Origin: Tubulanus polymorphus
Taxonomy: Eukaryota > Animalia > Nemertea
Length of the DNA: 64,000 nt
Assembly (NCBI RefSeq): GCF_964204645.1
Contig: NC_134025.1
Span: forward strand, 13,330,001-13,394,000
Direction: 5' to 3'
This document shows, in pieces, positions 8,101-52,688 of the stretch (position 1 is its first letter; every line of letters starts with the position of its first letter). The notes under the pieces are model-generated. The model was not told where the DNA came from. It did not search any database and was given only the letters and a program-made list of their open reading frames with translations. The position numbers were made by a program, and so were the translations under genes.

Positions 8101-10402
8101 CACTTTCGCATTTGTAGCAAATCTAGCATATGGTGTTTAATGGTGCTCGTAGTCATTGGTAGGCAGTTCAATAGGTCTTGTGACACCCAGGAAGAAAGAC
8201 ACTCTAAATATTTGGATGGATACATGAAAGCTGTGGGTACTGGAGTGTGTAATGGGTAGTGTAGTGCGATCTGTGTGCATTTGTGGCCAGCACACAGATC
8301 ACATTGTTCATTGGGGTTTGGTCCAGGACTCGCGAGATTTTCATCAACACGGAAGTAACGTGTAATAAATGATGACTTGAATTGCATGACTACCTTCCAC
8401 CCCTCATTATTGTTGGAAAACTAAACGTTCGGCACTGACTAAAAATTAGTAATAATATTTTAGAAATGGCCAGAATTTTAACTTAGGTGCTATCTCATTT
8501 TTATTTTACAATTGCGATTGGTATAATTTTTTTTAAAACGGCCGTTAAGGCTTCATGTTTCGTCTGCAATTCACTGCAAATAGTTACGCAACTACGCACA
8601 TTTCAGTGTTTTTGGCAGCTGTACACTCAATCGGCACCGTTCGTGACTAGCTTCACTGCGGAATTATCATTAATTAACATCGCCATATCACATCATCAAC
8701 TTATATTGTGCCTTAAAACCCTAACAGCCGAAATAATTGAAATGCACACACGATTTCTATCATTGAAAATTGAGAGAGTGGCCATGTTTGTGTTTGCTGC
8801 TTCGCGTAAATCCCGCACGGTGGCGCACCCGCGCGGAGTGGGGCCGATACGTCAAGTCGAGCAATGTTCACGCCCCTGTATTGCCAGGATACAGCCGCTT
8901 CACAACAACCACAAGGCATCATAATGCTCCTATGGTTTATGTGCCGATGAAATGCGAAAATTCTTTTATTACTGGCCAAACTTTCATCATTGAAACTCGG
9001 GGCTTGAAATCAAGCGCTGGCTTCCAGATGACAAGCTAAAACGCAATCTGGATAAATTTGAGGCCATTTGATATGGAACTGTTCTGGCTTTACGTTCTAA
9101 TCATGTAATGTTTGTTAACATCGGTGATAATCGTATAAAACTGCGCTAATTCGAAATATTGGGGTTATGTTCGATTATAAACTCGAAATGGTTGATCAAG
9201 TCACCAACATCATTCGCAAGACCTCATACCACCGTCGGGCTAATAGATAAATCCGGCGTCAGTTAACCACTGAGTCGACTTGACTGCTCATACGGTTGTT
9301 GATACTGTCGAGAATTGTTTATCGTAATTTGTGTCTAGCTCGGAAATGTGACCCTGGTAAAATGTGGTTGTCATTTTAGTGGACGACGAATTTTTCTTTC
9401 TCCTTGTTTAAGGATGGTTTATTTGGTCTCCTGATACCTATATCTTCCATTTTTCGTAGGTCTGGTGTTGCTTTATCTCGTTCTGTCGGTTTTTGCGTAT
9501 GTGAAGTCCAATGCGTGGAGTTTGGGGGCATTTTTGGCGGCTTGAAGTTGTTTCTGCTGCCCACGCGCTCTTTTTAATTAAATAAACCGTAGCTTACTTA
9601 CATGTATATTTATCATATCAAGCCTTTTTTATTGTGTTCATTATAGTCTTAATGTTGGACCTTCATCGGAAGACCCATACATCAAACTAACATAATATTC
9701 ATAATATCCCGCCCCATGAGAAAATGGGAAAGGACGAGCTTCATTTGAAGGAAAATAAACAATAGATGAAGTTGATTGATAAGGTCATTTTCAATATAAA
9801 TGACAGACGAAATTATAGTGGTTACAAATTGTTGGTAATTGAAACAAATTCTGCGAAAGGTTTTGCCAAAAAATCGCGAGATATCTTTGGAACAATATAT
9901 ATCCACAACTCGGAATTGTATGTAATTATATAGATCTGTACGTAAAGGGGGTTAATTGGTAAGAGCGGGATACTGAAATCAAGTCAGTATAGTACTAGTA
10001 GGTGAATTTCGTCGAAAATAAATTATGTTTGTTTGTGAAAGAAATATTCGTTGTCAATGTTGAACTGCTGCAAAGGTGGAGAGGGATTAAATGACGATTT
10101 CGAGGATTACCATCATATACCGTTAACACTTATTGATTATTGTGACTACAATATGCTCGAGTTATTAAGATCCTTGGACCTTTCGGAAAAATGGGCCGTC
10201 GCGTCACTTAACACATCAAAAAAGTTTCAAGATTGTTTGACCTGTCAAAGATTATTCAATCTGGACTTTTACTACGCGAAGCAAAAGTTCATTCAAATTA
10301 ACACTTTAAAATAATAGGTAAAGCTTTAATCTTTACGTTTTAGTGGCCACTGCTGCCTTGTTTGAACGATGTTTCATAATTATGATATATGTTTCTCCAC
10401 AG

Positions 10403-13400
10403 ATGGACAGCCAAAATCAAAAGGAAACTCTTGTCGCAGGAGAAAACCTCAAACTCGACCTGTTGATAACAAAGGGCTGAGGAGTTCAGATGAATATATC
10501 ATATCAACAGACAATGATAGCATTTATTCAGAAGATTCTATCAGTCCCAATGAAGACCGAGAGCACCAGATCAGAGCTCGCAGTGCATCTGCTGTTGTAG
10601 ACGGTGCTGTTGGCGGGATTGATATGGAAGCTTTTCCCCGCAGCGCATCGACAAATGCTGTGGACAATGCGCATGGTGACTTTCAAGGGAAAATGAAAGC
10701 TATCCCACCTGAAGAATCATTCCACCTGAGCTGGGATAGCGGTATTGGAACAATACAAAGAGGCCAGTCTGTAGCTGAAACGAATGTTTTTAGTGATGCA
10801 GAAACCTTATTAGGACCAGATGAAAATGATGCCGAGAGGTCGCTGAGAGATGTTGACGATTCCTTAAGATGTACCGCTCTAGAACAAACCGTCGTTAATC
10901 ACTGGTCATCTCTAGATTCTGCCGAAGCTGATGTGGTACGTCCTAGAATCGATGTAGAAGTCGGTGGAGTAGCCCTTCTGCCAGATGAATTGCGTGTAGT
11001 TATACCTACACGAAGACTACCAGAAAATGTGATTGTCACGGATACGGATGTTTGGAATAACACATCTAATGACAGAAATGCATCTCTTTTTGGATATTTG
11101 ACACCAGGAATAGAATCTAGTACAGCTGACATCGATTCCATTACACACGAAGGCATGTCAAATGATACCGTTGTAAGTGAAGGCACCTTCGTAATTGGTT
11201 ATCATCCCGATTATAATGATTGTGTACAGTTGAATAACAAACGGACCTTATCAGATCGGAAACGTGAGGATAGTAAAAGTACAGAACAAATTGACATTTC
11301 AGTACCTAAGGGTGAGAAAAAACAACGAGGGGCAAAATCTGAAGATGTTCATACTGGTGATGAGCATCTATCAGATGAATCCGATCTTGGAAACATTGAA
11401 CCTGACAGAGAAAGATACAGCGACGAGATGATAAGGTGCCAAATTGTACATTTCAAATGTCCCGATCCGTCGTCTCGACGGAATAAACGGGATCCTAATC
11501 GGGATGAAGAGCGGAGACGAGCATTGATCTTTTCAGACTTGTTGAACTTTAACATTCATGATAATTTTCACTCGGAATGTTTTAGTGCTGAAAGTTGGCC
11601 AGCTAATAATGAACAGGGTAGTGGCGAGGCGAGTCGAATACCAGATCTAATTGAAGGCCATAATACGTCTGTAGCTGTTTCGCATAGAATTATCAGTGAG
11701 CGATTATCAAGCGAAGAGCAACCTGGCACGCGAACATTGGATAGACTTGGCCGAGGGTCTCTTGAAGTGTGGTCGACCGATTATGATCATACTCCCGTAA
11801 TGGCCTGTCCGCCACAGCCAATACCCGTGACAGCTTCTCAGAAATTTTTTGATGCAATTACAGAAAGGCTGGATTCGAAGCCATCTAGACTAACATTAGG
11901 TATTACCAAAACCGAGATCTGGGAAGGGAATGGAACTGATGCTGATGACAAAATAGAAGTAACAATGACACCCCCAGGCCAGACATTAGAATCAAATCTT
12001 GTAGCCATTGATATACCATTGTCTTCTCGAAATTATGCGGTCACAGAGTTGTCTCTAGAAAGCCCTGAATTGATTACAATGCATCTGCTAGACCAGCAGG
12101 TCACGGGAAACAATACTGTCCTGTCAATCTCCGAGAATGATTCAGCTACGTCTCAGGACAGAGTCCAACAGGTTCCATGCCGTATTGAGACGTTCGCAAA
12201 TAATGTACATCACGCTGAGAAACAACATGCTACCACGGTTAGGGCAGATCTGCCTTCCCGAATCTGTCCAATATCTAAAGTGCCTTCAATTTTACCAGAA
12301 ACTGCTCCTATTTATAGTATACCCGGAAGCATTGTAACAAGGGAAGGCGTGCAAGTACCATCTACTGGCACTGAATATGCTCACAGTCAGATGAATGACA
12401 TTCTTAATGGACTAGAAATCGCTGCCGTTGAATTATGGTCAAATTATGACGATGGACACTTAACCACGGCTGGAAGCCAACCGGATACAGTTGATGCGCA
12501 TGAAAAAATGATCAGAAGACCAATGCTACTTCAGGTAACTGCCACAAATCGATGGAGTACCGATGGCCATGGAAATATTTTAAAAGGACCAATCGTAGAC
12601 GCGACTACTCATGGTGAGTCATTTACGGTGCCATTGGAGGCAATAATACAAGACATTTGGAAGACGGAAGTACCATTGGGTAAGACTGGTGATACAATGT
12701 GTAGGATGACATCCGAAAATAATAGATTAATCAAGGAGTGCTTAGACTATCTTGATTTCGCTCCATTAGAAACATGGGCCAACTCTGACCCTGATGCAAA
12801 AAGCCTGGTCTGTTTTGAACCACCAAATGACGTTCCTCCCATGCGCTACCAAAATGCAAAAAACCTTGCTGGACTTATTATGGCAGTTTGGGCCACAGAT
12901 GGCTTAGATGTAAAAGGAGAATCTAAGATTGAAGTTGAATATGCATCGGCATTTCACAATGGATCGGTATCACTTTCAAATAATTTCGGAGCAAAAATAT
13001 CAGTGACTGCAGAACCGAGATTCATTAGGCCTCAAACGCTACTTGAAGCAGTTGAAAATGATCTTTATGATGAAACTGCTAAAACATTTTTGGACCCAAG
13101 AACTGACGTCAAATATAATCTAGCGTCTGCCATAACTAGTGGTTTGATAGATGACGAAACTACAAAACTAGCTATTCCCAATGGCGGAAGATTATCCCTG
13201 AAAGATGCTATGACTGACGGACTCGTGGACTCGTGTTCCGGACAGGTATTAGATCAAATGACCGGCAGATTGATTTCTCTGCCAGTTGCTATTGAAAGGC
13301 GGATTGTTGTTTCTGATGTACGAATGAATGAAGACCAACGAGAATTCAAGGGCATGTCTACAGAAAAAATTGAAGAAAATAATGATTTGTCTGACGAAAA

Positions 13401-16400
13401 AAATGTGCCAAAAGGTTACATCCAAAGCAATAATTCTAGCACAACGAGTTTCAAATTACCTGATGTGATGAAAAGTGGAATATTGCGGAATGAATTTACC
13501 AATCCAAAAACAGGAAGGTTAGATGAAGCTATACAGGGTGGGACGATAGATGCTCAACATTTCAATATACTCCTGCCATCTGGGGATACAAATATATTAG
13601 ACATTGCACCTGCCACTGGGCAGGTAGATCCCAAAATGCGGCGAGTAACTGGCCGTGTGGCAGCTTCACACATACCTCTCATGCAAACTGCCACAACCGA
13701 TTTGCATGAAACGCGTTCGCCCATGGTTAATCTAAGCTATGAGGCAACAAGACATATGACTCCAGATAATGCCCATGATGATGCAAAATATGCTAGCATC
13801 ATTCAACCAAAATGTAGATCAACCGATGACATAAAACCTGTAGAAACAGATTTGATTGTTGATAACAACAAATTAACTCAAGAGAGTAAAAAGTTTGATT
13901 CTATGAAGAAAATGGATGTTGAGTGTATAATTAATCCACTAACTGATCAAGTAGGTAGAGATAAATTTGACTTTCCATTGCCAAAAAAACATTTTCTCGC
14001 AGAAGTTCATACAATCACTTTGCTCTTAGAAGAGCTCAGTACTTCACAACTTGAAATTTGGTCGAATACGGATGACTTTGATAGGCCATGCGATGCTTAC
14101 CAACCACCACTTTGTCACGAGCGAAAGGAAATCAAACGTTTTCATAACCCAGCACATCTTGAATCAATAACAATTCGACCTTGGAGTACTGATGGGTTAG
14201 GAACAGAGCATGGTGCTACTGAAATTGAGTACTTGTGTGGAGGAATTATTGGTTATGGAAAACTGGTTCCACCTGAGATACCAATTCCAGATGATGATTC
14301 CGCAAAATCTCAGAAAGTTAGGGCACAAACATGTTTAAAGAAAATCAAAATTTCAAATCGTCTTTGGAAGTCTGCCATCGATATCTGGACTAATCTGTCA
14401 GCAATTCCGAAACCTTTATCGGTTTCCCATCCTAGGAGAAAAATTGGCCCATGTCCAAATAAAGTTTTGTTAAAAAAACTAAGAATTTGCATCACCGATG
14501 AATGGCAAAATGATGGAATAGCAAATACAGAAATAACTATGGAGTCTCATTTTATATCCCCGAGTAAAAGAGGAATTTCATCTTGCCGAAGACGAAATAT
14601 TGACGACAGAGATATTGGGCCTGCAGACTACTTGCAGGGTAGTGAATCCGAATCCATATATGGACCTGATGGAAATATGGATATCTCAGCACAACTTAAT
14701 CATTCTATACAAAAAGGAGAATTTGATATTGCACCTATTGATTTATGGTCATCCGTACATCCAAGCGAACCAGTTTCCTATCATTCACCATCAAATGGTC
14801 AGCCATACAGTAAAAAGGCGTTGAAGAGATGGTTCACACTTATGTCTAAGCAGCTCCCTATTTGGCATACCGAGGGTTTAGATCATGGTTTTCATAAAGT
14901 GGAGATTGAATATGATACCCCTGACAGTTTTGGAAAGTACGTTTTGCCCTTGACAGACATTGATGTCACGGTGATGGACAGTTGCAAAAATTCTGATCCC
15001 AATGAATGTCAAAAAATATCATTTAAAAATGATGACTTAAACTTTAAACTCGCGCCCATTGATGTGTGGTGTACATCAATTCGGGATAAAGATCTCTCGG
15101 TAAATGTCCCCAATGGTTTAAGGAGGAAGACACGATCTTTCTCAAGACGAAGGCTGATGGAACGTTCGGCCAATGAAGTGTGGCATACTGATGGAATAGA
15201 CCGAGCGGATTATCTTTTTGAAGTAAGCTCTATAACTTCTTATGATAAGGGCACAGTAAAAGTGCACCAGCCGCGGTTGCATAGTATAGGAGAACGAGAT
15301 GAATGTTCGTCAAATATATATACATTGGATATGGTGAACCAGCCAGATAGTTTGATACTAAGTGCGTTGGTGGATCAAGGCTTGTTGATACCACCAGTGC
15401 CAGAAGATATAGCTGTCAAAGAAACTAAAGGAATAGCATGTGGTACACCGGTGAAAGAAGAAGAGAATGAAATAACCATGTTTTCAAAACATGCAGACTC
15501 TGTGGGTTTTGATTCACGCAATATACATGCTCATCAGGATATTCCAATGACTAAGGTAAGTAACATTTCACAATCATTAAACATTCGTATTAACGATCAG
15601 GTATTCAAGGCATCAGCTGGTAGCTTCGACGGTGAAGGTTCAACCAACTCCCATATTGAGAATATGCCTACATCAGTTCACTTAGCTGAAAATGATGATG
15701 TCCAGGAATTGAGCAGTCCGCAGGAAAGTGAACCAGGCGCAGTTAGTGACCTGACTTTCCTAGACGATAACAAGGCAGGTTCTAGTAGCATTTGTGCAAC
15801 TCTGCAAAAAGGTGATATGGGCAGAGAATTGTACGATGAATGTAAAGATATCATAATGAAAGATACCAGAGGGAAAATAATCACTGCACCGCATTATTTG
15901 ACTCAACAAGCTAATTTAGATAAAACAGCAGGAGAAACTGCCACACCAGAGCGTTCGAACGTATATGATTCAAAAAAACGATATGGCGTAAACCAGAAAG
16001 ACATCAGCGAAACATTATCGAATATGTCTGTACGCATGTCAAAATCTTGGAATGACATTTCCATGCTCAACGAAAACGATGTCAGTTCAAATGATTATGC
16101 AAAAAATGGAAAGCTGTTTGCAAACACACCTAAGGTGCATGGATGTACAGGTACACTTCCACCGATTTTTGAACTAAACAGTTTTACCGATGAAGACACA
16201 TTTGATCAATATGGTTCAAGAATGCATAGAAAATATACTCAATCAGATCCTGGTATCGACAACGCTGGAGTTAATATCCCGGAACGTTCATATTCAGAAA
16301 CAGATCTATATGCATTTGACAATTACCTTATGTTAAACGAGCTATCACAGTCATCTGATAGTATAATGTACATTTTCCTGGGTACGAGGTCTTCTACCAC

Positions 16401-19400
16401 AAAAAGCACCGATGATATATGTGATAACTTGGAAAATCAATTCGAAAAGTTGGGTGCCACGCCTACAACTAAGGAACATTCTGCATTTCCAAAGTCAGTT
16501 TTGAAGAGCAAGGATTCAACAGCCATTAAGATACTAACGGAAGTCAAAGGAGAAAGACCATCTGTATATCATCCAGGATTGGTAATGAGGAAAAGGAGAT
16601 TGGCCAAAAGCAAAAGGCCGAAGAGTTATCATTTTGATAGACGTATGATTCGAGATTTCGAGGGGGAAAATCACCACGAGGAACAGAGAAAATCATTTTA
16701 TGAACAAGACCTAGCTGCAACACCGGAATATGGAAGAAAAGGCAAGGAATGGACGCCTGCAACAGAAAGTGGAAAAGATCTAGCTGAGAAACAAAGATGT
16801 TCAATTGAGCAATCTTTAGATGTCGCTTCTGGTCAAGCAAACAAACATATATTTTCACTGTCGGGCGATGTTAACAATAGCGCTGTTTCATCCGATGTAA
16901 CGAAACTGGAGCCAATGATGTTGGAAGAAACTCTCGGCACATTCGTAGACCCGCAAACACGCAGCAAGATGAAACTCGCTGATGCGGTCGCCACTAGTTT
17001 GATTGACGGAACGTCGACTAAAGTAAAGACGCCGTCCGGAGGGTCGACAACACTTTCTCAAGCAATTTCTACCGGTATCGTCGATGGCCAATCAGGAAAG
17101 GGGTTTAGTCCATCGACCGGAAAACTGGTTGACTTGTCACAAGCCATTGACTCGGGAGTGGTGAGTACCTATTCGAAACCGAAGATGACGCTGAATGAAG
17201 CCGTTGAACGGGGTCTTTACGATAGTGATGACAATACAATCATCGACCCAAATACTGGTAGCAAAGTAAAATTACTATCGGCCATCTCCGACGGATTGAT
17301 CGACGCCACTTCGTCAGCGATAACTGCATCAGATGGCAGCGTCGTACAATTAAATCGAGCCCTTTCCGATGGTCTTGTCGACGCACACACTGGCAACGTT
17401 ATCGACGAAACTACAGGCAAATCCGTCGCACTGTCGGATGTTCTCACTAATAAACCGGCGACAGTTCCAAAAAACCTAAGTATCGAAGAAGCTATCGAGA
17501 TTGGTGTTTTCGACGCAAAAAGAAACGCATTTATCGATCCATTAACCGGAAAAGATATGACGCTAGCAGAGGCCGTACAACACGGATTGGTCAGCGCTGA
17601 AAGATCACACGTGAAAACATCTGATGGTGATTTCATGACCGTTGGCCGAGCTATTGCAACTGGTAGTATCGACGGCGAAACAGGAATTGTTAACGACCAA
17701 AAGACAGGCCAGGCAGTGTGCCTCGCTGAAGCTGTCTCCAAAGGATTGGTTAGCTCAGTCGAAGCGGTTGTTCCACCACTTAAATCGCTGACCGTCGACG
17801 AAGCAGTAAAAAGGGGTCTTTACGATGAAAAGACCAACACTTTCGTGGACCCCATCAACGGCAGTCGGATGAGTTTGGTTTCGGCTATTACCAGTGGGAA
17901 AATCGACGCGGAGGCGAGCAAAGTAAAAACGCTGACCGGAGACGTGTCACTCAATGAAGCTCTTTCATCCGGAATCGTAGATGCCACAACTGGAAAGGTT
18001 GCCGACCAAACTACCGGACAGATAATTTCACTGTCGGATGCTGTTAACAATGGCGCTGTTTCATCCGATGTTAGGCAACCGGAACCAATGACGTTGGATG
18101 AAGCGCTCGGCAAAGGTATTTACGATGCCAAATCGAACACAGTGATCGATCCAAACAGCGGAAATCGCTTGTCAATCATTGATGCGGTGAAAGAAGGAGT
18201 GATTGACGGAAAATTGAGTAAACTGAAACTGGCAACTGACAGCGATCGGGAAATAAGTCTTCAAGACGTCATTAACACAGGCATGATAGACCCCGATTCC
18301 GGTAAACTGATCGACCCTAACAGTGGACAAGTTATCGATGTCGAGCAAGCATTACAAACAGGCGCGAAACTAGCCGATACAACGCAAGTACGTGGAATTA
18401 CCATTGACGAAGCCATTTCTGCTGGATTGATGGACGGAAACACATTCGTAGATCCACAAACGGGCAGAAAGATGAACCTCGCTGATGCGGTCGCCACTGG
18501 TTTGATTGACGGAATGTCGAAAAAAGTAAAGACGCCGTCCGGAGGGTCGACAACACTTTCTCAAGCAATTTCTACCGGTATCGTCGATGGCTTATCAGGA
18601 AAGGTGTTTAGTCCATCGACCGGAAAACTGGTTGACTTGTCACAAGCCATTGACTCGGGAGTGGTGAGTACCTATTCGAAACCGAAGATGACGCTGAATG
18701 AAGCCATTGAACGGGGTCTTTACGATAGTGATGACAATACAATCATCGACCCAAATACTGGTAGCAAAGTAAAATTACTATCGGCCATCTCCGACGGAGT
18801 GATCGACGCCACCTCGTCAGCGATAACAGCTTCAGATGGCAGCGTCGTTCAATTAAATCGAGCCATTTCCGATGGTCTTGTCGACGCACACACTGGCAAC
18901 GTTATCGACGAAACTACAGGCAAATCCGTCGCGCTGTCGGATGTTCTCACTAATAAACCGGCGACAGTACCAAAAAACCTAAGTATCGAAGAAGCTATCG
19001 AGATTGGTGTTTTCGACGCAAAAAGAAACGCATTTATCGATCCATTAACCGGAAAAGATATGACGCTATCAGAGGCCGTACAACACGGATTGGTCAGCGC
19101 TGAAAGATCACACGTGAAAACATCTGATGGTGATTTCATGACCGTTGGCCGAGGTATTGCAACTGGTAGTATCGACGGCGAAACAGGAATTATTAACGAC
19201 CAAAAGACAGGCCAGGCAGTGTGCCTCGCTGAAGCTGTCTCCAAAGGATTGGTTAGCTCAGTCGAAGAGGATGTTCCACCACTTAAATCGCTGACCGTCG
19301 ACGAAGCAGTAAAAAGGGGTCTTTACGATGAAAAGACCAACACTTTCGTGGACCCCATCAACGGCAGTCGGATGAGTTTGGTTTCGGCTATTACCAGCGG

Positions 19401-22400
19401 GAAAATCGACGCGGAGGCGAGCAAAGTAAAAACGCTGACCGGAGACGTGTCACTCAATGAAGCTCTTTCATCCGGAATCGTAGATGCCACAACTGGAAAG
19501 GTTGCCGACCAAACTACCGGACAGATAATTTCACTGTCGGATGCTGTTAACAATGGCGCTGTTTCATCCGATGTTAGGCAACCGGAACCAATGACGTTGG
19601 ATGAAGCGCTCGGCAAAGGTATTTACGATGCCAAATCGAACACAGTGATCGATCCAAACAGCGGAAATCGCTTGTCAATCATTGATGCGGTGAAAGAGGG
19701 AGTGATTGACGGAAAATTGAGTAAACTGAAACTGGCAACTGACAGCGATCGGGAAATAAGTCTTCAAGACGTCATTAACACAGGCATGATAGACCCCGAT
19801 TCCGGTAAACTGATCGACCCTAACAGTGGACAAGTTATCGATGTCGAGCAAGCATTACAGACAGGCGCGAAACTAGCCGATACAATGCTGGTACGTGGAA
19901 TGACCATTGACGAAGCCATTTCTGCTGGATTGATGGACGGAAACACATTCGTAGACCCACAAACGGGCAGAAAGATGAACCTCGCTGATGCGGTCGCCAC
20001 TGGTTTGATTGCCGGAACGTCGACTAAAGTAAAGACGCCGTCCGGAGAGTCGACAACACTTTCTCAAGCAATTTCTGCCGGTATCGTTGATGGCCAATCA
20101 GGAAAGGTGTTTAGTCCATCGACCGGAAAACTGGTTGACTTGTCACAAGCCATTGACTCGGGAGTGGTGAGTACCTATTCGAAACCGAAGATGACGCTGA
20201 ATGAAGCCGTTGAACGGGGTCTTTACGATAGTGATGACAAAACGATCATCGACCCAAATACTGGTAGCAAAGTAAAATTACTATCGGCCATCTCCGACGG
20301 ATTGATCGACGCCACCTCGTCAGCGATAACTGCTTCAGATGGCAGCGTCGTTCAATTAAATCGAGCCATTTCCGATGGTCTTGTCGACGCACACACTGGC
20401 AACGTTATCGACGAAACTACAGGCAAATCCGTCGCGCTGTCGGATGTTCTCACTAATAAACCGGCGACAGTACCAAAAAACCTAAGTATCGAAGAAGCTA
20501 TCGAGATTGGTGTTTTCGACGCAAAAAGAAACGCATTTATCGATCCATTAACCGGAAAAGATATGACGCTAGCAGAGGCCGTACAACACGGATTGGTCAG
20601 CGCTGAAAGATCACACGTGAAAACATCTGATGGTGATTTCATGACCGTTGGCCGAGCTATTGCAACTGGTAGTATCGACGGCGAAACAGGAATTATTAAC
20701 GACCAAAAGACAGGCCAGGCAGTGTGCCTCGCTGAAGCTGTCTCCAAAGGATTGGTTAGCTCAGTCGAAGAGGATGTTCCACCACTTAAATCGCTGACTG
20801 TCGACGAAGCAGTAAAAAGGGGTCTTTACGATGAAAAGACCAACACTTTCGTGGACCCCATCAACGGCAGTCGGATGAGTTTGGTTTCGGCTATTACCAG
20901 CGGGAAAATCGACGCGGAGGCGAGCAAAGTAAAAACGCTGACCGGAGACGTGTCACTCAATGAAGCTCTTTCATCCGGAATCGTAGATGCCACAACTGGA
21001 AAGGTTGCCGACCAAACTACCGGACAGATAATTTCACTGTCGGATGCTGTTAACAATGGCGCTGTTTCATCCGATGTTAGGCAACCTGAACCAATGACGT
21101 TGGATGAAGCGCTCGGCAAAGGTATTTACGATGCCAAATCGAACACAGTGATCGATCCAAACAGCGGAAATCGCTTGTCAATCATTGATGCGGTGAAAGA
21201 AGGAGTGATTGACGGAAAATTGAGTAAACTGAAACTGGCAACTGACAGCGATCGGGAAATAAGTCTTCAAGACGTCATTAACACAGGCATGATAGACCCC
21301 GATTCCGGTAAACTGATCGACCCTAACAGTGGACAAGTTATCGATGTCGAGCAAGCATTACAGACAGGCGCGAAACTAGCCGATACAATGCCAGTACGTG
21401 GAATGACCATTGACGAAGCCATTTCTGCTGGATTGATGGACGGAAACACATTCGTAGACCCACAAACGGGCAGAAAGATGAACCTCGCTGATGCGGTCGC
21501 CACTGGTTTGATTGACGGAGCGTCGACTAAAGTAAAGACGCCGTCCGGAGAGTCGACAACACTTTCTCAAGCAATTTCTGCCGGTATCGTTGATGGCCAA
21601 TCAGGAAAGGTGTTTAGTCCATCGACCGGAAAACTGGTTGACTTGTCACAAGCCATTGACTCGGGAGTGGTGAGTACCTATTCGAAACCGAAGATGACGC
21701 TGAATGAAGCCGTTGAACGGGGTCTTTACGATAGTGATGACAATACAATCATCGACCCAAATACTGGTAGCAAAGTAAAATTACTATCGGCCATCTCCGA
21801 CGGAGTGATCGACGCCACCTCGTCAGCGATAACTGCTTCAGATGGCAGCGTCGTTCAATTAAATCGAGCCATTTCCGATGGTCTTGTCGACGCACACACT
21901 GGCAACGTTATCGACGAAACTACAGGCAAATCCGTCGCGCTGTCGGATGTTCTCACTAATAAACCGGCGACAGTACCAAAAAACCTAAGTATCGAAGAAG
22001 CTATCGAGATTGGTGTTTTCGACGCAAAAAGAAACGCATTTATCGATCCATTAACCGGAAAAGATATGACGCTAGCAGAGGCCGTACAACACGGATTGGT
22101 CAGCGCTGAAAGATCACACGTGAAAACATCTGATGGTGATTTCATGACCGTTGGCCGAGCTATTGCAACTGGTATTATCGACGGCGAAACAGGAATTATT
22201 AACGACCAAAAGACAGGCCAGGCAGTGTGCCTCGCTGAAGCTGTCTCCAAAGGATTGGTTAGCTCAGTCGAAGAGGATGTTCCACCACTTAAATCGCTGA
22301 CTGTCGACAAAGCAGTAAAAAGGGGTCTTTACGATGAAAAGACCAACACTTTCGTGGACCCCATCAACGGCAGTCGGATGAGTTTGGTTTCGGCTATTAC

Positions 22401-25400
22401 CAGCGGGAAAATCGACGCGGAGGCGAGCAAAGTAAAAACGCTGACCGGAGACGTGTCACTCAATGAAGCTCTTTCATCCGGAATCGTAGATGCCACAACT
22501 GGAAAGGTTGCCGACCAAACTACCGGACAGATAATTTCACTGTCGGATGCTGTTAACAATGGCGCTGTTTCATCCGATGTTAGGCAACCTGAACCAATGA
22601 CGTTGGATGAAGCGCTCGGCAAAGGTATTTACGATGCCAAATCGAACACAGTGATCGATCCAAACAGCGGAAATCGCTTGTCAATCATTGATGCGGTGAA
22701 AGAGGGAGTGATTGACGGAAAATTGAGTAAACTGAAACTGGCAACTGACAGCGATCGGGAAATAAGTCTTCAAGACGTCATTAACACAGGCATGATAGAC
22801 CCCGATTCCGGTAAACTGATCGACCCTAACAGTGGACAAGTTATCGATGTCGAGCAAGCATTACAGACAGGCGCGAAACTAGCCGATACAATGCCAGTAC
22901 GTGGAATGACCATTGACGAAGCCATTTCTGCTGGATTGATGGACGGAAACACATTCGTAGACCCACAAACGGGCAGAAAGATGAACCTCGCTGATGCGGT
23001 CGCCACTGGTTTGATTGCCGGAACGTCGACTAAAGTAAAGACGCCGTCCGGAGAGTCGACAACACTTTCTCAAGCAATTTCTGCCGGTATCGTTGATGGC
23101 CAATCAGGAAAGCTGTTTAGTCCATCGACCGGAAAACTGGTTGACTTGTCACAAGCCATTGACTCGGGAGTGGTGAGTACCTATTCGAAACCGAAGATGA
23201 CGCTGAATGAAACCGTTGAACGGGGTCTTTACGATAGTGATGACAATACAATCATCGACCCAAATACTGGTAGCAAAGTAAAATTACTATCGGCCATCTC
23301 CGACGGAGTGATCGACGCCACCTCGTCAGCGATAACTGCTTCAGATGGCAGCGTCGTTCAATTAAATCGAGCCATTTCCGATGGTCTTGTCGACGCACAC
23401 ACTGGCAACGTTATCGACGAAACTACAGGCAAATCCGTCGCGCTGTCGGATGTTCTCACTAATAAACCGGCGACAGTACCAAAAAACCTAAGTATCGAAG
23501 AAGCTATCGAGATCGGTGTTTTCGACGCAAAAAGAAACGCATTTATCTATCCATTAACCGGAAAAGATATGACGCTAGCAGAGGCCGTACAACACGGATT
23601 GGTCAGCGCTGAAAGATCACACGTGAAAACATCTGATGGTGATTTCATGACCGTTGGCCGAGCTATTGCAACTGGTAGTATCGACGGCGAAACAGGAATT
23701 ATTAACGACCAAAAGACAGGCCAGGCAGTGTGCCTCGCTGAAGCTGTCTCCAAAGGATTGGTTAGCTCAGTCGAAGAGGATGTTCCACCACTTAAATCGC
23801 TGACTGTCGACGAAGCAGTAAAAAGGGGTCTTTACGATGAAAAGACCAACACTTTCGTGGACCCCATCAACGGCAGTCGGATGAGTTTGGTTTCGCCTAT
23901 TACCAGCGGGAAAATCGACGCGGAGGCGAGCAAAGTAAAAACGCTGACCGGAGACGTGTCACTCAATGAAGCTCTTTCATCCGGAATCGTAGATGCCACA
24001 ACTGGAAAGGTTGCCGACCAAACTACCGGACAGATAATTTCACTGTCGGATGCTGTTAACAATGGCGCTGTTTCATCCGATGTTAGGCAACCGGAACCAA
24101 TGACGTTGGATGAAGCGCTCGGCAAAGGTATTTACGATGCCAAATCAAACACAGTGATCGATCCAAACAGCGGAAATCGCTTGTCAATCATTGATGCGGT
24201 GAAAGAGGGAGTGATTGGCGGAAAATTGAGTAAACTGAAACTGGCAACTGACAGCGATCGGGAAATAAGTCTTCAAGACGTCATTAACACAGGCATGATA
24301 GACCCCGATTCCGGTAAACTGATCGACCCTAACAGTGGACAAGTTATCGATGTCGAGCAAGCATTACAGACAGGCGCGAAACTAGCCGATACAATGCCAG
24401 TACGTGGAATGACCATTGACGAAGCCATTTCTGCTGGATTGATGGACGGAAACACATTCGTAGACCCACAAACGGGCAGAAAGATGAACCTCGCTGATGC
24501 GGTCGCCACTGGTTTGATTGACGGAACGTCGACTAAAGTAAAGACGCCGTCCGGAGAGTCGACAACACTTTCTCAAGCAATTTCTGCCGGTATCGTTGAT
24601 GGCCAATCAGGAAAGCTGTTTAGTCCATCGACCGGAAAACTGGTTGACTTGTCACAAGCCATTGACTCGGGAGTGGTGAGTACCTATTCGAAACCGAAGA
24701 TGACGCTGAATGAAGCCGTTGAACGGGGTCTTTACGATAGTGATGACAAAACGATCATCGACCCAAATACTGGTAGCAAAGTAAAATTACTATCGGCCAT
24801 CTCCGACGGATTGATCGACGCCACCTCGTCAGCGATAACTGCTTCAGATGGCAGCGTCGTTCAATTAAATCGAGCCATTTCCGATGGTCTTGTCGACGCA
24901 CACACTGGCAACGTTATCGACGAAACTACAGGCAAATCCGTCGCGCTGTCGGATGTTCTCACTAATAAACCGGCGACAGTACCAAAAAACCTAAGTATCG
25001 AAGAAGCTATCGAGATCGGTGTTTTCGACGCAAAAAGAAACGCATTTATCGATCCATTAACCGGAAAAGATATGACGCTAGCAGAGGCCGTACAACACGG
25101 ATTGGTCAGCGCTGAAAGATCACACGTGAAAACATCTGATGGTGATTTCATGACCGTTGGCCGAGCTATTGCAACTGGTAGTATCGACGGCGAAACAGGA
25201 ATTATTAACGACCAAAAGACAGGCCAGGCAGTGTGCCTCGCTGAAGCTGTCTCCAAAGGATTGGTTAGCTCAGTCGAAGAGGATGTTCCACCACTTAAAT
25301 CGCTGACTGTCGACGAAGCAGTAAAAAGGGGTCTTTACGATGAAAAGACCAACACTTTCGTGGACCCCATCAACGGCAGTCGGATGAGTTTGGTTTCGGC

Positions 25401-28400
25401 TATTACCAGCGGGAAAATCGACGCGGAGGCGAGCAAAGTAAAAACGCTGACCGGAGACGTGTCACTCAATGAAGCTCTTTCATCCGGAATCGTAGATGCC
25501 ACAACTGGAAAGGTTGCCGACCAAACTACCGGACAGATAATTTCACTGTCGGATGCTGTTAACAATGGCGCTGTTTCATCCGATGTTAGGCAACCTGAAC
25601 CAATGACGTTGGATGAAGCGCTCGGCAAAGGTATTTACGATGCCAAATCGAACACAGTGATCGATCCAAACAGCGGAAATCGCTTGTCAATCATTGATGC
25701 GGTGAAAGAAGGAGTGATTGACGGAAAATTGAGTAAACTGAAACTGGCAACTGACAGCGATCGGGAAATAAGTCTTCAAGACGTCATTAACACAGGCATG
25801 ATAGACCCCGATTCCGGTAAACTGATCGACCCTAACAGTGGACAAGTTATCGATGTCGAGCAAGCATTACAGACAGGCGCGAAACTAGCCGATACAATGC
25901 CAGTACGTGGAATGACCATTGACGAAGCCATTTCTGCTGGATTGATGGACGGAAACACATTCGTAGACCCACAAACGGGCAGAAAGATGAACCTCGCTGA
26001 TGCGGTCGCCACTGGTTTGATTGACGGAGCGTCGACTAAAGTAAAGACGCCGTCCGGAGAGTCGACAACACTTTCTCAAGCAATTTCTGCCGGTATCGTT
26101 GATGGCCAATCAGGAAAGGTGTTTAGTCCATCGACCGGAAAACTGGTTGACTTGTCACAAGCCATTGACTCGGGAGTGGTGAGTACCTATTCGAAACCGA
26201 AGATGACGCTGAATGAAGCCGTTGAACGGGGTCTTTACGATAGTGATGACAAAACGATCATCGACCCAAATACTGGTAGCAAAGTAAAATTACTATCGGC
26301 CATCTCCGACGGATTGATCGACGCCACCTCGTCAGCGATAACTGCTTCAGATGGCAGCGTCGTTCAATTAAATCGAGCCATTTCCGATGGTCTTGTCGAC
26401 GCACACACTGGCAACGTTATCGACGAAACTACAGGCAAATCCGTCGCGCTGTCGGATGTTCTCACTAATAAACCGGCGACAGTACCAAAAAACCTAAGTA
26501 TCGAAGAAGCTATCGAGATCGGTGTTTTCGACGCAAAAAGAAACGCATTTATCGATCCATTAACCGGAAAAGATATGACGCTAGCAGAGGCCGTACAACA
26601 CGGATTGGTCAGCGCTGAAAGATCACACGTGAAAACATCTGATGGTGATTTCATGACCGTTGGCCGAGCTATTGCAACTGGTAGTATCGACGGCGAAACA
26701 GGAATTATTAACGACCAAAAGACAGGCCAGGCAGTGTGCCTCGCTGAAGCTGTCTCCAAAGGATTGGTTAGCTCAGTCGAAGAGGATGTTCCACCACTTA
26801 AATCGCTGACTGTCGACGAAGCAGTAAAAAGGGGTCTTTACGATGAAAAGACCAACACTTTCGTGGACCCCATCAACGGCAGTCGGATGAGTTTGGTTTC
26901 GGCTATTACCAGCGGGAAAATCGACGCGGAGGCGAGCAAAGTAAAAACGCTGACCGGAGACGTGTCACTCAATGAAGCTCTTTCATCCGGAATCGTAGAT
27001 GCCACAACTGGAAAGGTTGCCGACCAAACTACCGGACAGATAATTTCACTGTCGGATGCTGTTAACAATGGCGCTGTTTCATCCGATGTTAGGCAACCTG
27101 AACCAATGACGTTGGATGAAGCGCTCGGCAAAGGTATTTACGATGCCAAATCGAACACAGTGATCGATCCAAACAGCGGAAATCGCTTGTCAATCATTGA
27201 TGCGGTGAAAGAAGGAGTGATTGACGGAAAATTGAGTAAACTGAAACTGGCAACTGACAGCGATCGGGAAATAAGTCTTCAAGACGTCATTAACACAGGC
27301 ATGATAGACCCCGATTCCGGTAAACTGATCGACCCTAACAGTGGACAAGTTATCGATGTCGAGCAAGCATTACAGACAGGCGCGAAACTAGCCGATACAA
27401 TGCCAGTACGTGGAATGACCATTGACGAAGCCATTTCTGCTGGATTGATGGACGGAAACACATTCGTAGACCCACAAACGGGCAGAAAGATAAACCTCGC
27501 TGATGCCGTCGCCACTGGTTTGATTGACGGAGCGTCGACTAAAGTAAAGACGCCGTCCGGAGAGTCGACAACACTTTCTCAAGCAATTTCTGCCGGTATC
27601 GTTGATGGCCAATCAGGAAAGGTGTTTAGTCCATCGACCGGAAAACTGGTTGACTTGTCACAAGCCATTGACTCGGGAGTGGTGAGTACCTATTCGAAAC
27701 CGAAGATGACGCTGAATGAAGCCGTTGAACGGGGTCTTTACGATAGTGATGACAAAACGATCATCGACCCAAATACTGGTAGCAAAGTAAAATTACTATC
27801 GGCCATCTCCGACGGATTGATCGACGCCACCTCGTCAGCGATAACTGCTTCAGATGGCAGCGTCGTTCAATTAAATCGAGCCATTTCCGATGGTCTTGTC
27901 GACGCACACACTGGCAACGTTATCGACGAAACTACAGGCAAATCCGTCGCGCTGTCGGATGTTCTCACTAATAAACCGGCGACAGTACCAAAAAACCTAA
28001 GTATCGAAGAAGCTATCGAGATCGGTGTTTTCGACGCAAAAAGAAACGCATTTATCGATCCATTAACCGGAAAAGATATGACGCTAGCAGAGGCCGTACA
28101 ACACGGATTGGTCAGCGCTGAAAGATCACACGTGAAAACATCTGATGGTGATTTCATGACCGTTGGCCGAGCTATTGCAACTGGTAGTATCGACGGCGAA
28201 ACAGGAATTATTAACGACCAAAAGACAGGCCAGGCAGTGTGCCTCGCTGAAGCTGTCTCCAAAGGATTGGTTAGCTCAGTCGAAGAGGATGTTCCACCAC
28301 TTAAATCGCTGACTGTCGACGAAGCAGTAAAAAGGGGTCTTTACGATGAAAAGACCAACACTTTCGTGGACCCCATCAACGGCAGTCGGATGAGTTTGGT

Positions 28401-31400
28401 TTCGGCTATTACCAGCGGGAAAATCGACGCGGAGGCGAGCAAAGTAAAAACGCTGACCGGAGACGTGTCACTCAATGAAGCTCTTTCATCCGGAATCGTA
28501 GATGCCACAACTGGAAAGGTTGCCGACCAAACTACCGGACAGATAATTTCACTGTCGGATGCTGTTAACAATGGCGCTGTTTCATCCGATGTTAGGCAAC
28601 CTGAACCAATGACGTTGGATGAAGCGCTCGGCAAAGGTATTTACGATGCCAAATCGAACACAGTGATCGATCCAAACAGCGGAAATCGCTTGTCAATCAT
28701 TGATGCGGTGAAAGAAGGAGTGATTGACGGAAAATTGAGTAAACTGAAACTGGCAACTGACAGCGATCGGGAAATAAGTCTTCAAGACGTCATTAACACA
28801 GGCATGATAGACCCCGATTCCGGTAAACTGATCGACCCTAACAGTGGACAAGTTATCGATGTCGAGCAAGCATTACAGACAGGCGCGAAACTAGCCGATA
28901 CAATGCCAGTACGTGGAATGACCATTGACGAAGCCATTTCTGCTGGATTGATGGACGGAAACACATTCGTAGACCCACAAACGGGCAGAAAGATGAACCT
29001 CGCTGATGCGGTCGCCACTGGTTTGATTGACGGAGCGTCGACTAAAGTAAAGACGCCGTCCGGAGAGTCGACAACACTTTCTCAAGCAATTTCTGCCGGT
29101 ATCGTTGATGGCCAATCAGGAAAGGTGTTTAGTCCATCGACCGGAAAACTGGTTGACTTGTCACAAGCCATTGACTCGGGAGTGGTGAGTACCTATTCGA
29201 AACCGAAGATGACGCTGAATGAAGCCGTTGAACGGGGTCTTTACGATAGTGATGACAATACAATCATCGACCCAAATACTGGTAGCAAAGTAAAATTACT
29301 ATCGGCCATCTCCGACGGAGTGATCGACGCCACCTCGTCAGCGATAACTGCTTCAGATGGCAGCGTCGTTCAATTAAATCGAGCCATTTCCGATGGTCTT
29401 GTCGACGCACACACTGGCAACGTTATCGACGAAACTACAGGCAAATCCGTCGCGCTGTCGGATGTTCTCACTAATAAACCGGCGACAGTACCAAAAAACC
29501 TAAGTATCGAAGAAGCTATCGAGATTGGTGTTTTCGACGCAAAAAGAAACGCATTTATCGATCCATTAACCGGAAAAGATATGACGCTAGCAGAGGCCGT
29601 ACAACACGGATTGGTCAGCGCTGAAAGATCACACGTGAAAACATCTGATGGTGATTTCATGACCGTTGGCCGAGCTATTGCAACTGGTAGTATCGACGGC
29701 GAAACAGGAATTATTAACGACCAAAAGACAGGCCAGGCAGTGTGCCTCGCTGAAGCTGTCTCCAAAGGATTGGTTAGCTCAGTCGAAGAGGATGTTCCAC
29801 CACTTAAATCGCTGACTGTCGACGAAGCAGTAAAAAGGGGTCTTTACGATGAAAAGACCAACACTTTCGTGGACCCCATCAACGGCAGTCGGATGAGTTT
29901 GGTTTCGGCTATTACCAGCGGGAAAATCGACGCGGAGGCGAGCAAAGTAAAAACGCTGACCGGAGACGTGTCACTCAATGAAGCTCTTTCATCCGGAATC
30001 GTAGATGCCACAACTGGAAAGGTTGCCGACCAAACTACCGGACAGATAATTTCACTGTCGGATGCTGTTAATAATGGCGCTGTTTCATCCGATGTTAGGC
30101 AACCTGAACCAATGACGTTGGATGAAGCGCTCGGCAAAGGTATTTACGATGCCAAATCGAACACAGTGATCGATCCAAACAGCGGAAATCGCTTGTCAAT
30201 CATTGATGCGGTGAAAGAGGGAGTGATTGACGGAAAATTGAGTAAACTGAAACTGGCAACTGACAGCGATCGGGAAATAAGTCTTCAAGACGTCATTAAC
30301 ACAGGCATGATAGACCCCGATTCCGGTAAACTGATCGACCCTAACAGTGGACAAGTTATCGATGTCGAGCAAGCATTACAGACAGGCGCGAAACTAGCCG
30401 ATACAATGCCAGTACGTGGAATGACCATTGACGAAGCCATTTCTGCTGGATTGATGGACGGAAACACATTCGTAGACCCACAAACGGGCAGAAAGATGAA
30501 CCTCGCTGATGCGGTCGCCACTGGTTTGATTGCCGGAACGTCGACTAAAGTAAAGACGCCGTCCGGAGAGTCGACAACACTTTCTCAAGCAATTTCTGCC
30601 GGTATCGTTGATGGCCAATCAGGAAAGCTGTTTAGTCCATCGACCGGAAAACTGGTTGACTTGTCACAAGCCATTGACTCGGGAGTGGTGAGTACCTATT
30701 CGAAACCGAAGATGACGCTGAATGAAGCCGTTGAACGGGGTCTTTACGATAGTGATGACAATACAATCATCGACCCAAATACTGGTAGCAAAGTAAAATT
30801 ACTATCGGCCATCTCCGACGGAGTGATCGACGCCACCTCGTCAGCGATAACTGCTTCAGATGGCAGCGTCGTTCAATTAAATCGAGCCATTTCCGATGGT
30901 CTTGTCGACGCACACACTGGCAACGTTATCGACGAAACTACAGGCAAATCCGTCGCGCTGTCGGATGTTCTCACTAATAAACCGGCGACAGTACCAAAAA
31001 ACCTAAGTATCGAAGAAGCTATCGAGATCGGTGTTTTCGACGCAAAAAGAAACGCATTTATCTATCCATTAACCGGAAAAGATATGACGCTAGCAGAGGC
31101 CGTACAACACGGATTGGTCAGCGCTGAAAGATCACACGTGAAAACATCTGATGGTGATTTCATGACCGTTGGCCGAGCTATTGCAACTGGTAGTATCGAC
31201 GGCGAAACAGGAATTATTAACGACCAAAAGACAGGCCAGGCAGTGTGCCTCGCTGAAGCTGTCTCCAAAGGATTGGTTAGCTCAGTCGAAGAGGATGTTC
31301 CACCACTTAAATCGCTGACTGTCGACGAAGCAGTAAAAAGGGGTCTTTACGATGAAAAGACCAACACTTTCGTGGACCCCATCAACGGCAGTCGGATGAG

Positions 31401-34400
31401 TTTGGTTTCGGCTATTACCAGCGGGAAAATCGACGCGGAGGCGAGCAAAGTAAAAACGCTGACCGGAGACGTGTCACTCAATGAAGCTCTTTCATCCGGA
31501 ATCGTAGATGCCACAACTGGAAAGGTTGCCGACCAAACTACCGGACAGATAATTTCACTGTCGGATGCTGTTAACAATGGCGCTGTTTCATCCGATGTTA
31601 GGCAACCGGAACCAATGACGTTGGATGAAGCGCTCGGCAAAGGTATTTACGATGCCAAATCAAACACAGTGATCGATCCAAACAGCGGAAATCGCTTGTC
31701 AATCATTGATGCGGTGAAAGAGGGAGTGATTGACGGAAAATTGAGTAAACTGAAACTGGCAACTGACAGCGATCGGGAAATAAGTCTTCAAGACGTCATT
31801 AACACAGGCATGATAGACCCCGATTCCGGTAAACTGATCGACCCTAACAGTGGACAAGTTATCGATGTCGAGCAAGCATTACAGACAGGCGCGAAACTAG
31901 CCGATACAATGCCAGTACGTGGAATGACCATTGACGAAGCCATTTCTGCTGGATTGATGGACGGAAACACATTCGTAGACCCACAAACGGGCAGAAAGAT
32001 GAACCTCGCTGATGCGGTCGCCACTGGTTTGATTGACGGAACGTCGACTAAAGTAAAGACGCCGTCCGGAGAGTCGACAACACTTTCTCAAGCAATTTCT
32101 GCCGGTATCGTTGATGGCCAATCAGGAAAGCTGTTTAGTCCATCGACCGGAAAACTGGTTGACTTGTCACAAGCCATTGACTCGGGAGTGGTGAGTACCT
32201 ATTCGAAACCGAAGATGACGCTGAATGAAGCCGTTGAACGGGGTCTTTACGATAGTGATGACAATACAATAATCGACCCGAATACTGGTAGCAATGTAAA
32301 ATTACTATCGGCCATCTCCGACGGAGTGATCGACGCCACCTCGTCAGCGATAACTGCTTCAGATGGCAGCGTCGTTCAATTAAATCGAGCCATTTCCGAT
32401 GGTCTTGTCGACGCACACACTGGCAACGTTATCGACGAAACTACAGGCAAATCCGTCGCGCTGTCGGATGTTCTCACTAATAAACCGGCGACAGTACCAA
32501 AAAACCTAAGTATCGAAGAAGCTATCGAGATTGGTGTTTTCGACGCAAAAAGAAACGCATTTATCGATCCATTAACCGGAAAAGATATGACGCTAGCAGA
32601 GGCCGTACAACACGGATTGGTCAGCGCTGAAAGATCACACGTGAAAACATCTGATGGTGATTTCATGACCGTTGGCCGAGCTATTGCAACTGGTAGTATC
32701 GACGGCGAAACAGGAATTATTAACGACCAAAAGACAGGCCAGGCAGTGTGCCTCGCTGAAGCTGTCTCCAAAGGATTGGTTAGCTCAGTCGAAGAGGATG
32801 TTCCACCACTTAAATCGCTGACCGTCGACGAAGCAGTAAAAAGCGGTCTTTACGATGAAAAGACCAACACTTTCGTGGACCCCATCAACGGCAGTCGGAT
32901 GAGTTTGGTTTCGGCTATTACCAGCGGGAAAATCGACGCGGAGGCGAGCAAAGTAAAAACGCTGACCGGAGACGTGTCACTCAATGAAGCTCTTTCATCC
33001 GGAATCGTAGATGCCACAACTGGAAAGGTTGCCGACCAAACTACCGGACAGATAATTTCACTGTCGGATGCTGTTAACAATGGCGCTGTTTCATCCGATG
33101 TTAGGCAACCGGAACCAATGACGTTGGATGAAGCGCTCGGCAAAGGTATTTACGATGCCAAATCGAACACAGTGATCGATCCAAACAGCGGAAATCGCTT
33201 GTCAATCATTGATGCGGTGAAAGAGGGAGTGATTGACGGAAAATTGAGTAAACTGAAACTGGCAACTGACAGCGATCGGGAAATAAGTCTTCAAGACGTC
33301 ATTAACACAGGCATGATAGACCCCGATTCCGGTAAACTGATCGACCCTAACAGTGGACAAGTTATCGATGTCGAGCAAGCATTACAGACAGGCGCGAAAC
33401 TAGCCGTTACAATGCCAGTACGTGGAATGACCATTGACGAAGCCATTTCTGCTGGATTGATGAACGGAAACACATTCGTAGACCCACAAACGGGCAGAAA
33501 GATGAACCTCGCTGATGCGGTCGCCACTGGTTTGATTGACGGAACATCGACTAAAGTAAAGACGCCGTCCGGAGAGTCGACAACACTTTCTCAAGCAATT
33601 TCTGCCGGTATCGTTGATGGCCAATCAGGAAAGGTGTTTAGTCCATCGACCGGAAAACTGGTTGACTTGTCACAAGCCATTGACTCGGGAGTGGTGAGTA
33701 CCTATTCGAAACCGAAGATGACGCTGAATGAAGCCGTTGAACGGGGTTTTTTCGATAGTGATGACAATACAATCATCGACCCAAATACTGGTAGCAAAGT
33801 AAAATTACTATCGGCCATCTCCGACGGATTGATCGACGCCACCTCGTCAGCGATAACTGCTTCAGATGGCAGCGCCGTTCAATTAAATCAAGCCATTTCC
33901 GATGGTCTTGTCGACGCACACACTGGCAACGTTATCGACGAAACTACAGGCAAATCCGTCGCGCTGTCGGATGTTCTCACTAATAAACCGGCGACAGTAC
34001 CAAAAAACCTAAGTATCGAAGAAGCTATCGAGATTGGTGTTTTCGACGCAAAAAGAAACGCATTTATCGATCCATTAACCGGAAAAGATATGACGCTAGC
34101 AGAGGCCGTACAACACGGATTGGTCAGCGCGGAAAGATCACACGTGAAAACATCTGATGGTGATTTTATGACCGTTGGCCGAGCTATTGCAACTGGTAGT
34201 ATCGACGGCGAAACAGGAATTGTTAACGACCAAAAGACAGGCCAAGCAGTGTGCCTCGATGAAGCTGTCTCCAAAGGATTGGTTAGCTCAGTCGAAGCGG
34301 TTGTTCCACCACTTAAATCGCTGACCGTCGACGAAGCAGTAAAAAGGGGTCTTTACGATGAAAAGACCAACACTTTCGTGGACCCCATCAACGGCAGTCG

Positions 34401-52400: not shown

Positions 52401-52676
52401 TCAAGTAGTTGAACAAGCAAAAGGGCGAATATTCAATGCACGCATTCGCAGTCACACGTCAACTCCTAGAAGTGATGAATGCGATGATCTGTCAACGACA
52501 ACAGACTCGTTGCATTCAAGGCACGATAGATTTATGAGGCCCCACAACCACGTTGAGTATCTTGTTAACCTTAGACGTTCTCTCGTAGCATCAAGTTTGG
52601 AAAAAGAAAAACCTCAAAGACCTTCACCCAACCAAGGAAACTTAACACCCAAGCGTACTAGCAACAGTCTTGAAAG
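10403..52676 (+). CDS. STARD9: Giant 42,274-bp coding exon: unique N-part, ~32.6-kb plectin-like repeat array, acidic/coiled-coil C-part
   Basis: Lies within the uninterrupted ORF 10369-52707. Acceptor gtttctccacag|AT (phase 1, G+AT=Asp) and donor AG|gtatat (phase 2). ELVEAQLNYGIGQTDSLL (~52084-52137) and HVEYLVNLRRSLV resemble, from memory, conserved blocks in the STARD9 tail. Confidence 0.85.
13030..13310 (+). repeat. Solitary diverged plectin-like module upstream of the array
   Basis: TLLEAVENDLYDETAKTFLDPRTDVKYNLASAITSGLID...LSLKDAMTDGLVDSCSGQVLDQMTGRLISLPVAIERRIV follows the same four-motif pattern as the array modules. Confidence 0.8.
16939..49575 (+). repeat. Coding tandem array, 1503-bp unit (501 aa), ~21.7 copies, plectin/plakin-repeat-like
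   Basis: The same landmark recurs at 17820, 19323, 20826 ... 49383 (22 times, exactly 1503 apart). The motif L-x-E-A-[IV]-x-x-G-L-[YI]-D...D-P-x-[TS]-G is typical of plectin repeats. Confidence 0.95.
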
Positions 52677-52688
52677 GTATATACTTTT

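Follow-up and report, generated by a model that had tools for sequence, protein, structure and literature searches.

The window analysed here is the 64,000-nucleotide stretch of Tubulanus polymorphus contig NC_134025.1 from 13,330,001 to 13,394,000 of the forward strand (assembly GCF_964204645.1), and coordinates below are window positions. It contains a giant open reading frame of 14,113 codons from stop to stop (10366..52707, on the + strand, as are all units, motifs, repeats and exons placed in or downstream of it below), which, judging from its borders, is probably a single internal exon with a candidate acceptor AG at 10401-10402 and a candidate donor after 52676. The 5′ portion of this frame carries a tryptophan (Trp) repeat of seven units, each with a part A and a part B, and the gene to which it belongs probably encodes a STARD9/KIF16A-type kinesin (below). 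The repeat is real and old, and it is conserved at the protein level only. The Trp-unit region is no assembly artefact, since a gap-free contig from run X1 spans 10167-17026 with 12 differing letters.

The giant frame has 27 Trp residues in all, and 14 of them form seven A/B pairs in strict alternation. The units lie at 11746..11967 (unit 1, W469/W519, Trp codons at nucleotides 11770/11920), 12412..12600 (unit 2, W691/W730, 12436/12553), 12751..12936 (unit 3, W804/W842, 12775/12889), 14035..14229 (unit 4, W1232/W1273, 14059/14182), 14362..14550 (unit 5, W1341/W1380, 14386/14503), 14722..14910 (unit 6, W1461/W1500, 14746/14863) and 15043..15228 (unit 7, W1568/W1606, 15067/15181). The Trp-to-Trp spacings inside units 1 to 7 are 50, 39, 38, 41, 39, 39 and 38 residues, respectively, so six of the seven fall at 38-41, and the distance from a part B to the next part A is 68-390 residues. 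An unpaired copy of the elementary motif (12634..12669, W765) scores 14.0 bits with the joint profile described below and ranks directly below the 14 training sites. Two weak motif-like sites farther upstream (10879..11064, W180 and W230, spacing 50) score 7.5 and 6.7 bits, which is within the chance range, and were not picked up by the hidden Markov model (HMM) of the unit; they are possibly a decayed eighth unit.

When HMMs were built from six copies and used to score the seventh, the held-out copy obtained 14.8-36.6 bits, and in all seven tests none of 2000 shuffles scored as high. A regular expression for the unit, which was written post hoc from the copies, matches exactly these seven, and two or more matches occurred in 0 of 5000 shuffles. 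Self-blastn did not find DNA similarity between the copies (hits were at most 26 bases long, with E 0.13 or worse), their codon-aligned DNA identity is 33-45% and their protein identity 14-27%, and a plain blastp comparison of the region with itself found no internal repeat; profiles alone detect it. An earlier sequence-only reading of this DNA had placed seven A+B pairs at these positions and had described them as an old repeat, self-similar in protein and without evident DNA similarity, and all of this is upheld here, with every pair in the one frame. Its A-to-B distance of 45-55 residues must be corrected to the shorter and tighter spacings given above, and the [IV]E[VI]EY tail that it reported is clear in copies 3, 4 and 6 and does not hold for the others. 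It had overlooked the unpaired W765 copy and the START-like context of the 3′ exons.

Parts A and B share an 11-residue core, [LMF]-x5-[DE]-hydrophobic-W-x-[TNS]. The residue eight positions before the Trp (W-8) is L, F or M in all 14 window sites and in all four sites found in relatives (below), W+2 is T, N or S in 13 of 14 and 4 of 4 (Asn replaces Thr in 5 of the 14), and W-2 is D or E in 10 of 14 and 3 of 4; only three of the remaining 13 Trp residues of the giant frame have L, F or M at W-8. In cross-tests against other Trp sites, a profile trained on the A sites scored the B sites higher (p 0.002) and a profile trained on the B sites scored the A sites higher (p 0.012), and hhalign matched A to B with E 3e-4, in part due to the common Trp. 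Because the Trp-anchored alignment of window and relative sites has the same W-8, W-2 and W+2 positions, A and B are, on these aligned residues, two versions of one short motif.

Relatives were recovered with a conserved helical block that lies close to the end of the giant exon (51970..52317, core EAQLNY-x-IGQTD), and comprise P0001, P0004, P0005 and 20 loci. Their giant frames are 2604-6957 codons long and have the same landmarks, and the start of the giant exon is included only in P0004, P0005 and L009; in four loci the exons that carry the block are short, and the others are cut at the 5′ end. The four (L011, L012, L016 and L017) carry the block in frames of 82-143 codons, and therefore some relatives have no giant exon here. 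With the window-trained A profile, the best and second-best sites are W104 and W171 in P0004 and W233 and W170 in L009, all near the exon start, and the top site was matched by 0 of 300 shuffles (P0004) and 2 of 300 (L009). The joint profile of the 14 window sites gives 20.3 bits for W104 and 12.9 for W171 in P0004 (6957 residues), and 18.0 for W233 and 8.5 for W170 in L009 (2604 residues), while the highest score among the relatives' 279 other Trp sites is 8.6 bits; no shuffle of 500 reached the top site in either protein, whereas the score of the second site was reached by 0 of 500 for P0004 and by 13 of 500 for L009. The relatives' pair has a spacing of 63-67 residues, lies inside low-complexity sequence and is without the Gly or G-[LI] tail of the units. 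Neither an A+B unit nor a plectin array was found in the relatives examined, and the unit HMM, run on the 20 loci in six frames, gave a best E of 0.13 and nothing within the giant frames.

Because the same motif occurs as a lone pair near the exon start in P0004 and L009, we read the seven units as the likely product of a lineage-specific multiplication of a motif pair that was inherited, and not as a free-standing new domain. Ancestrally there seems to have been one pair, spaced at 63-67 residues; copy 1, with its spacing of 50, comes closest to it, and copies 2-7 appear to be united by their shorter spacing and W-x-T-[DE]-G tail. The history may have run from the ancestral pair through copy 1 to a shortened unit (38-41) whose second half reads W-x-T-[DE]-G-[LI], and from there to seven copies; two early plectin-like inserts would have become interleaved with the units, and the array of 501-residue repeats would have grown downstream later. 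In P0004, residues ~3290-5150 of the same exon are an unrelated 11-residue tandem array, nearly 1900 residues long; as relatives fill this exon with unrelated repeats of their own, it seems prone to repeat expansion.

The next exon downstream (54084..54311) keeps the reading frame when joined to the candidate donor at 52676 and is weakly like the sequence that follows the block in L011, L017, L012, L008 and L002 (blastp E 0.03-0.55). Five 3′ exons (61384-61608, 61952-62074, 62984-63064, 63142-63216 and 63314-63412) have GT-AG borders and make up a 200-codon frame that runs to a stop. One X8 contig of RNA type shows three of their four joints exactly, and this end of the gene is thus transcribed and spliced; runs X6 and X7 gave nothing across the 3′ exons. 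The START domain profile matches at its positions 149-169, and the matching exon starts at residue 144 of the 200-codon frame, which is the expected offset. From the frame-compatible splice sites and the weak similarity of the next exon we infer that the giant exon is joined to the START-like exons. As a giant low-complexity middle followed by a START-like end is the layout of STARD9/KIF16A, the gene is probably of this kinesin type; its identity rests on that layout and the START-like end, and the N-terminal kinesin-3 motor, with the FHA domain after it, would lie upstream of the window. The 3′ exons may also bear a closer likeness to human STARD9. STARD9 itself is described, in the available parts of PMC10203878 and PMC3383713, as a kinesin of about 4700 residues with an FHA domain plus a C-terminal START domain. 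The Tubulanus gene is like it in its great length, its huge low-complexity middle (the 14,113-codon frame) and its START-like last domain, and differs in having at least 14,000 residues, a plectin array and the seven Trp units.

At the other end of the gene, a basic, low-complexity frame of 470 codons is open at the 5′ edge of the window (1-1413) and is probably an upstream exon; Pfam gave no hit to it and no match was found among the relatives. Its obvious donor and the giant exon's candidate acceptor are not in frame with each other, and for this reason an intervening exon may be absent from the gene model. High-copy intronic elements, which contain a CGTC microsatellite and 154-bp subrepeats, lie at 2378-3600, 6967-7450 and 52736-53940 with a read depth thousands of times that of single-copy DNA, and at 56019-56568 and 56434-56620 a 550-base TA microsatellite is broken by a segment of ~45 bases that recurs inverted just downstream.

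The two plectin-like relics that had been read from the letters between copies 3 and 4 are indeed there. Relic 1 (13024..13308, residues ~887-981) is 30-40% identical to an array unit (blastp E 7e-15 to 3e-21), relic 2 (13447..13629, residues ~1028-1088, limits approximate) is more decayed and lies within the segments that blastp aligns with the array unit, and the relic region scores 27.2 bits against PF00681 (cut-off 20.5), which makes it plectin repeat. The plectin-repeat array proper (16915..49590) has ~21.7 units of 501 residues and scores 277.6 bits against PF00681 over its first 1011 residues; neighbouring units are 93-100% identical and the last, partial unit 70%, there is no Trp in its about 10,900 residues, and read depth at its start is ~15-28 times single copy. 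That it is near-identical and without counterpart in the relatives examined suggests that the array was captured from a plakin gene and recently homogenised.

Other landmarks of the exon are shared with relatives. Its start (10420-10545) has a basic cluster, then SSD[DE]Y and then acidic YSEDS/YSDED, and resembles the starts in L009 and P0005. The motif DSI-x-[YF]-[VI]-F (16357..16377), an orthology landmark that is conserved more widely than the Trp motif, occurs in P0004, P0005 and 14 of the 20 loci. Six QT motifs, which we take to be of the LC8-binding type, were found by regular expression at 49627..51945; QT clusters upstream of the conserved block are also seen in P0004 (residues 5700-6600) and P0005 (residues 5650-5680).

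Database searches gave no sound match for the repeat, in agreement with the sequence-only reading, which had assigned it to no known family. Pfam (E up to 1) reported only plectin in the repeat region, a seven-copy profile against PDB sequences gave one chance hit (E 0.39), Atlas gave no usable hit for copies 5-7 and scores of at most 0.83 for the conserved block, a word search that used copies 4-7 and covered proteins 780-2225 residues long found none in 3732 candidates, and a metagenome scan with a two-row alignment found nothing. The unit profile had two hits (E up to 0.001) among 1.84 billion representatives, a search in which a single-unit protein would be missed, and both were rejected as unrelated repeat proteins in which weak partial matches are summed: P0002 is a TPR-type repeat protein, and P0003 (1131 residues) matches profile positions 47-64 only, through a W-x-x-DGLDE repeat. 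P0003 has many such repeats, followed by a peptidase-like C-terminal part. The STARD9 literature, at the level of titles and abstract openings and in searches not aimed at the motif, does not describe such a repeat, and the sequence of the STARD9 middle was not found in the available portions of PMC4300403, PMC9252791, PMC2867816 or the PMC10203878 supplement. Across Pfam, PDB, Atlas, the 1.84-billion-representative search and this literature, the Trp motif repeat is undescribed; it belongs to a well-known type, in which motif copies are scattered along a giant exon.

Several Trp-centred patterns are superficially similar, and part B in particular resembles W-S-x-D-G. A WD40/PD40 propeller was rejected on the lack of a regular ~40-residue period (B to next A is 68-390) and of any Pfam or PDB hit. 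WW domains have two Trp residues about 20-22 residues apart and a central aromatic pair; here the spacing is 38-50, conserved central aromatics are absent and Pfam gave no hit. The LC3-interacting region/Atg8-interacting motif consensus, W-x-x-[ILV], is present in 2 of 14 window sites and none of the four relative sites, and the W-acidic motif bound by kinesin light chain, in which D or E follows the Trp directly, in 1 of 14 and none of four. Readings as PLK1 sites or as calcineurin- or SUMO-type motifs were also set aside: Asn is common at W+2, and the patterns fit only some copies.

What might the units do? We favour, with moderate confidence, the reading that they are a multivalent array of docking motifs that fold on binding, like the BRC repeats of BRCA2, in the long stalk of the probable STARD9/KIF16A-type kinesin. 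Such motifs fit because conservation is limited to two short patches of 11 residues with a Trp anchor, the spacers vary, FoldIndex values of the units stay close to zero (-0.15 to +0.09) and one copy is unpaired. By itself, each putative motif would be disordered; it would dock on a globular partner in the form of a short strand, anchored by the Trp and by the hydrophobic W-8 residue, and the T, N or S at W+2 would cap a turn. With the fixed spacing of 38-41 residues, a unit could occupy two sites or contact a dimeric partner, and avidity would rise with seven units. A number of observations weigh against this proposal. Both partner and binding are putative and the proposal is built from sequence, and the tight spacing and the strand-like tail of three copies would also fit a folded unit; order-promoting residues are also slightly commoner in the unit region (0.31) than in its flanks (0.26-0.27). 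Among the 12 between-sample differences listed for the non-array exon 11 are residue-changing, a hint of weak constraint; of these 12, one falls in the linker of a unit and no motif column is affected. P0005 does not have the motif pair, so two of the three relatives with an exon start carry it, no significant joint-motif site occurs in 17 of the 19 relatives scored (P0005 and 16 that are cut at the 5′ end), and the column range of the joint profile (-8 to +3) was picked once the relatives had been seen. As for the gene, RNA support is confined to the joints of the 3′ exons, with none over the giant exon; Pfam START scored E 0.2 and 11.5 bits (cut-off 22) in one of the five exons scanned singly, a PDB search with three single 3′ exons gave no START hit, and PMC3383713 states that conservation of STARD9 is limited to vertebrates.

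Alternatively, each A+B unit could be a small autonomously folded domain, with a strand in part A, a variable loop or helix, a strand that bears the second Trp, a T-D-G turn and a last strand, around a core of the two Trp and the two W-8 residues. This we consider unlikely. It would explain why the spacing stays at 38-41 in six of seven copies although the DNA is saturated, and why Gly is found at W(B)+4 in all seven and Pro near W(A)+14, and an AlphaFold model from a seven-row alignment gives copy 6 two strands of low confidence, one at residues 47-51 and one at 67-71. A fixed fold is, however, hard to reconcile with the relatives' pair at 63-67 residues without a Gly tail, with the unpaired W765 copy, and with a 25-residue middle that is unalignable except for one Pro, has a net charge of 0 to +7 and shows no alternating conserved core. 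AlphaFold also gave no confident model (predicted local distance difference test scores of 48 for the seven-row alignment and 31 for four units as a single sequence), a point that the shallow input makes weak. The structure predictions are too weak to decide, and the "new small domain" of the sequence-only reading is not supported as worded, given the unalignable middle, two halves that are the same motif, and the lone pair in relatives. Lower still do we rate the chance that the units are decaying remnants of an old tandem expansion, of which one pair or none is still used: the copies are as diverged as stated above, the neighbouring plectin-like inserts are visibly decaying and the exon tolerates many replacement differences, yet the Trp, W-8 and W+2 residues were retained while DNA similarity was lost and spacers changed several-fold. 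Trp is the residue most mutable to loss under drift, and the retention of all 14 does not sit easily with neutral decay.

Two further explanations look to neighbouring domains. That the units are plakin linker remains, brought in with the plectin repeats from a plakin or spectraplakin exon, is very improbable. Plectin-like relics do lie between copies 3 and 4, and spectraplakins have plakin repeats on one large exon (PMC2173965, as far as its available text goes), but there is no Trp in the array, the unit HMM found no plakin among the 1.84 billion representatives, and the motif is present in relatives without a plectin array (P0004 and L009), which largely refutes such an origin, since the motif is older than the array. 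The consensus for the phospho-threonine ligand of FHA domains is T-x-x-[LI], and the B halves, four of seven of which read T-[DE]-G-[LI], could be ligands of an FHA domain, perhaps the protein's own, through which the array would regulate the motor. STARD9 carries an FHA domain (PMC3383713, in the part available), but three copies are without the pattern, Asn stands at W+2 in 5 of 14 sites and the relatives have no G-[LI] tail, and this is the explanation to which we give the least credence.

The docking array that we favour has partial precedents. The BRC repeats of BRCA2 sit in one large exon and are likewise several old, diverged, two-module repeats; in contrast, both modules here are versions of one Trp motif ~39 residues apart. 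Membership of the BRC family was rejected, as FxxA and LFDE columns are not in the unit alignment and Pfam gave no hit at E up to 1. There are eight BRC repeats, with FxxA and LFDE modules that dock on a partner (PMC2800230 and 10.1101/2022.01.25.477309, from the portions available). Spectraplakins (Shot, MACF1b) resemble the present gene in having one large exon with many plectin/plakin repeats (PMC2173965), and differ in that the flanks here are START-like exons and the conserved block of array-free relatives in place of spectrin repeats, and the array is recent and homogenised. LC8 arrays of the ASCIZ type also have many short motifs on a disordered chain (accessible text of PMC5963919), and QT motifs are also found farther along the present exon, whereas the Trp motif is without a QT core.

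STARD9 targeting and partners are listed as open in the available part of PMC3383713, and that of PMC10203878 names only a dileucine signal. Few interaction sites have been mapped in STARD9's long middle, and the Trp motif points to a possible docking site there. Its sevenfold amplification in Tubulanus reveals a motif that is near-invisible as a single pair and yields a testable peptide; its importance stays modest as long as neither a partner nor a vertebrate occurrence of the motif has come to light. The locus also shows how a motif pair can become a repeat of fixed spacing, and how, in different animals, unrelated repeats can settle in a giant exon. As a tentative proposal that in its full form is rather unlikely, the [LMF]-x7-W pair would be an undescribed ancient docking element of STARD9/KIF16A kinesins, which in this lineage became a new ~65-residue Trp module in seven copies and was joined in the same exon by captured plakin repeats, so that the product, a hybrid of kinesin and plakin, exceeds 14,000 residues. 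If this is true, anchors on filaments or junctions would be linked through the hybrid to a motor and to a START domain that binds lipid.

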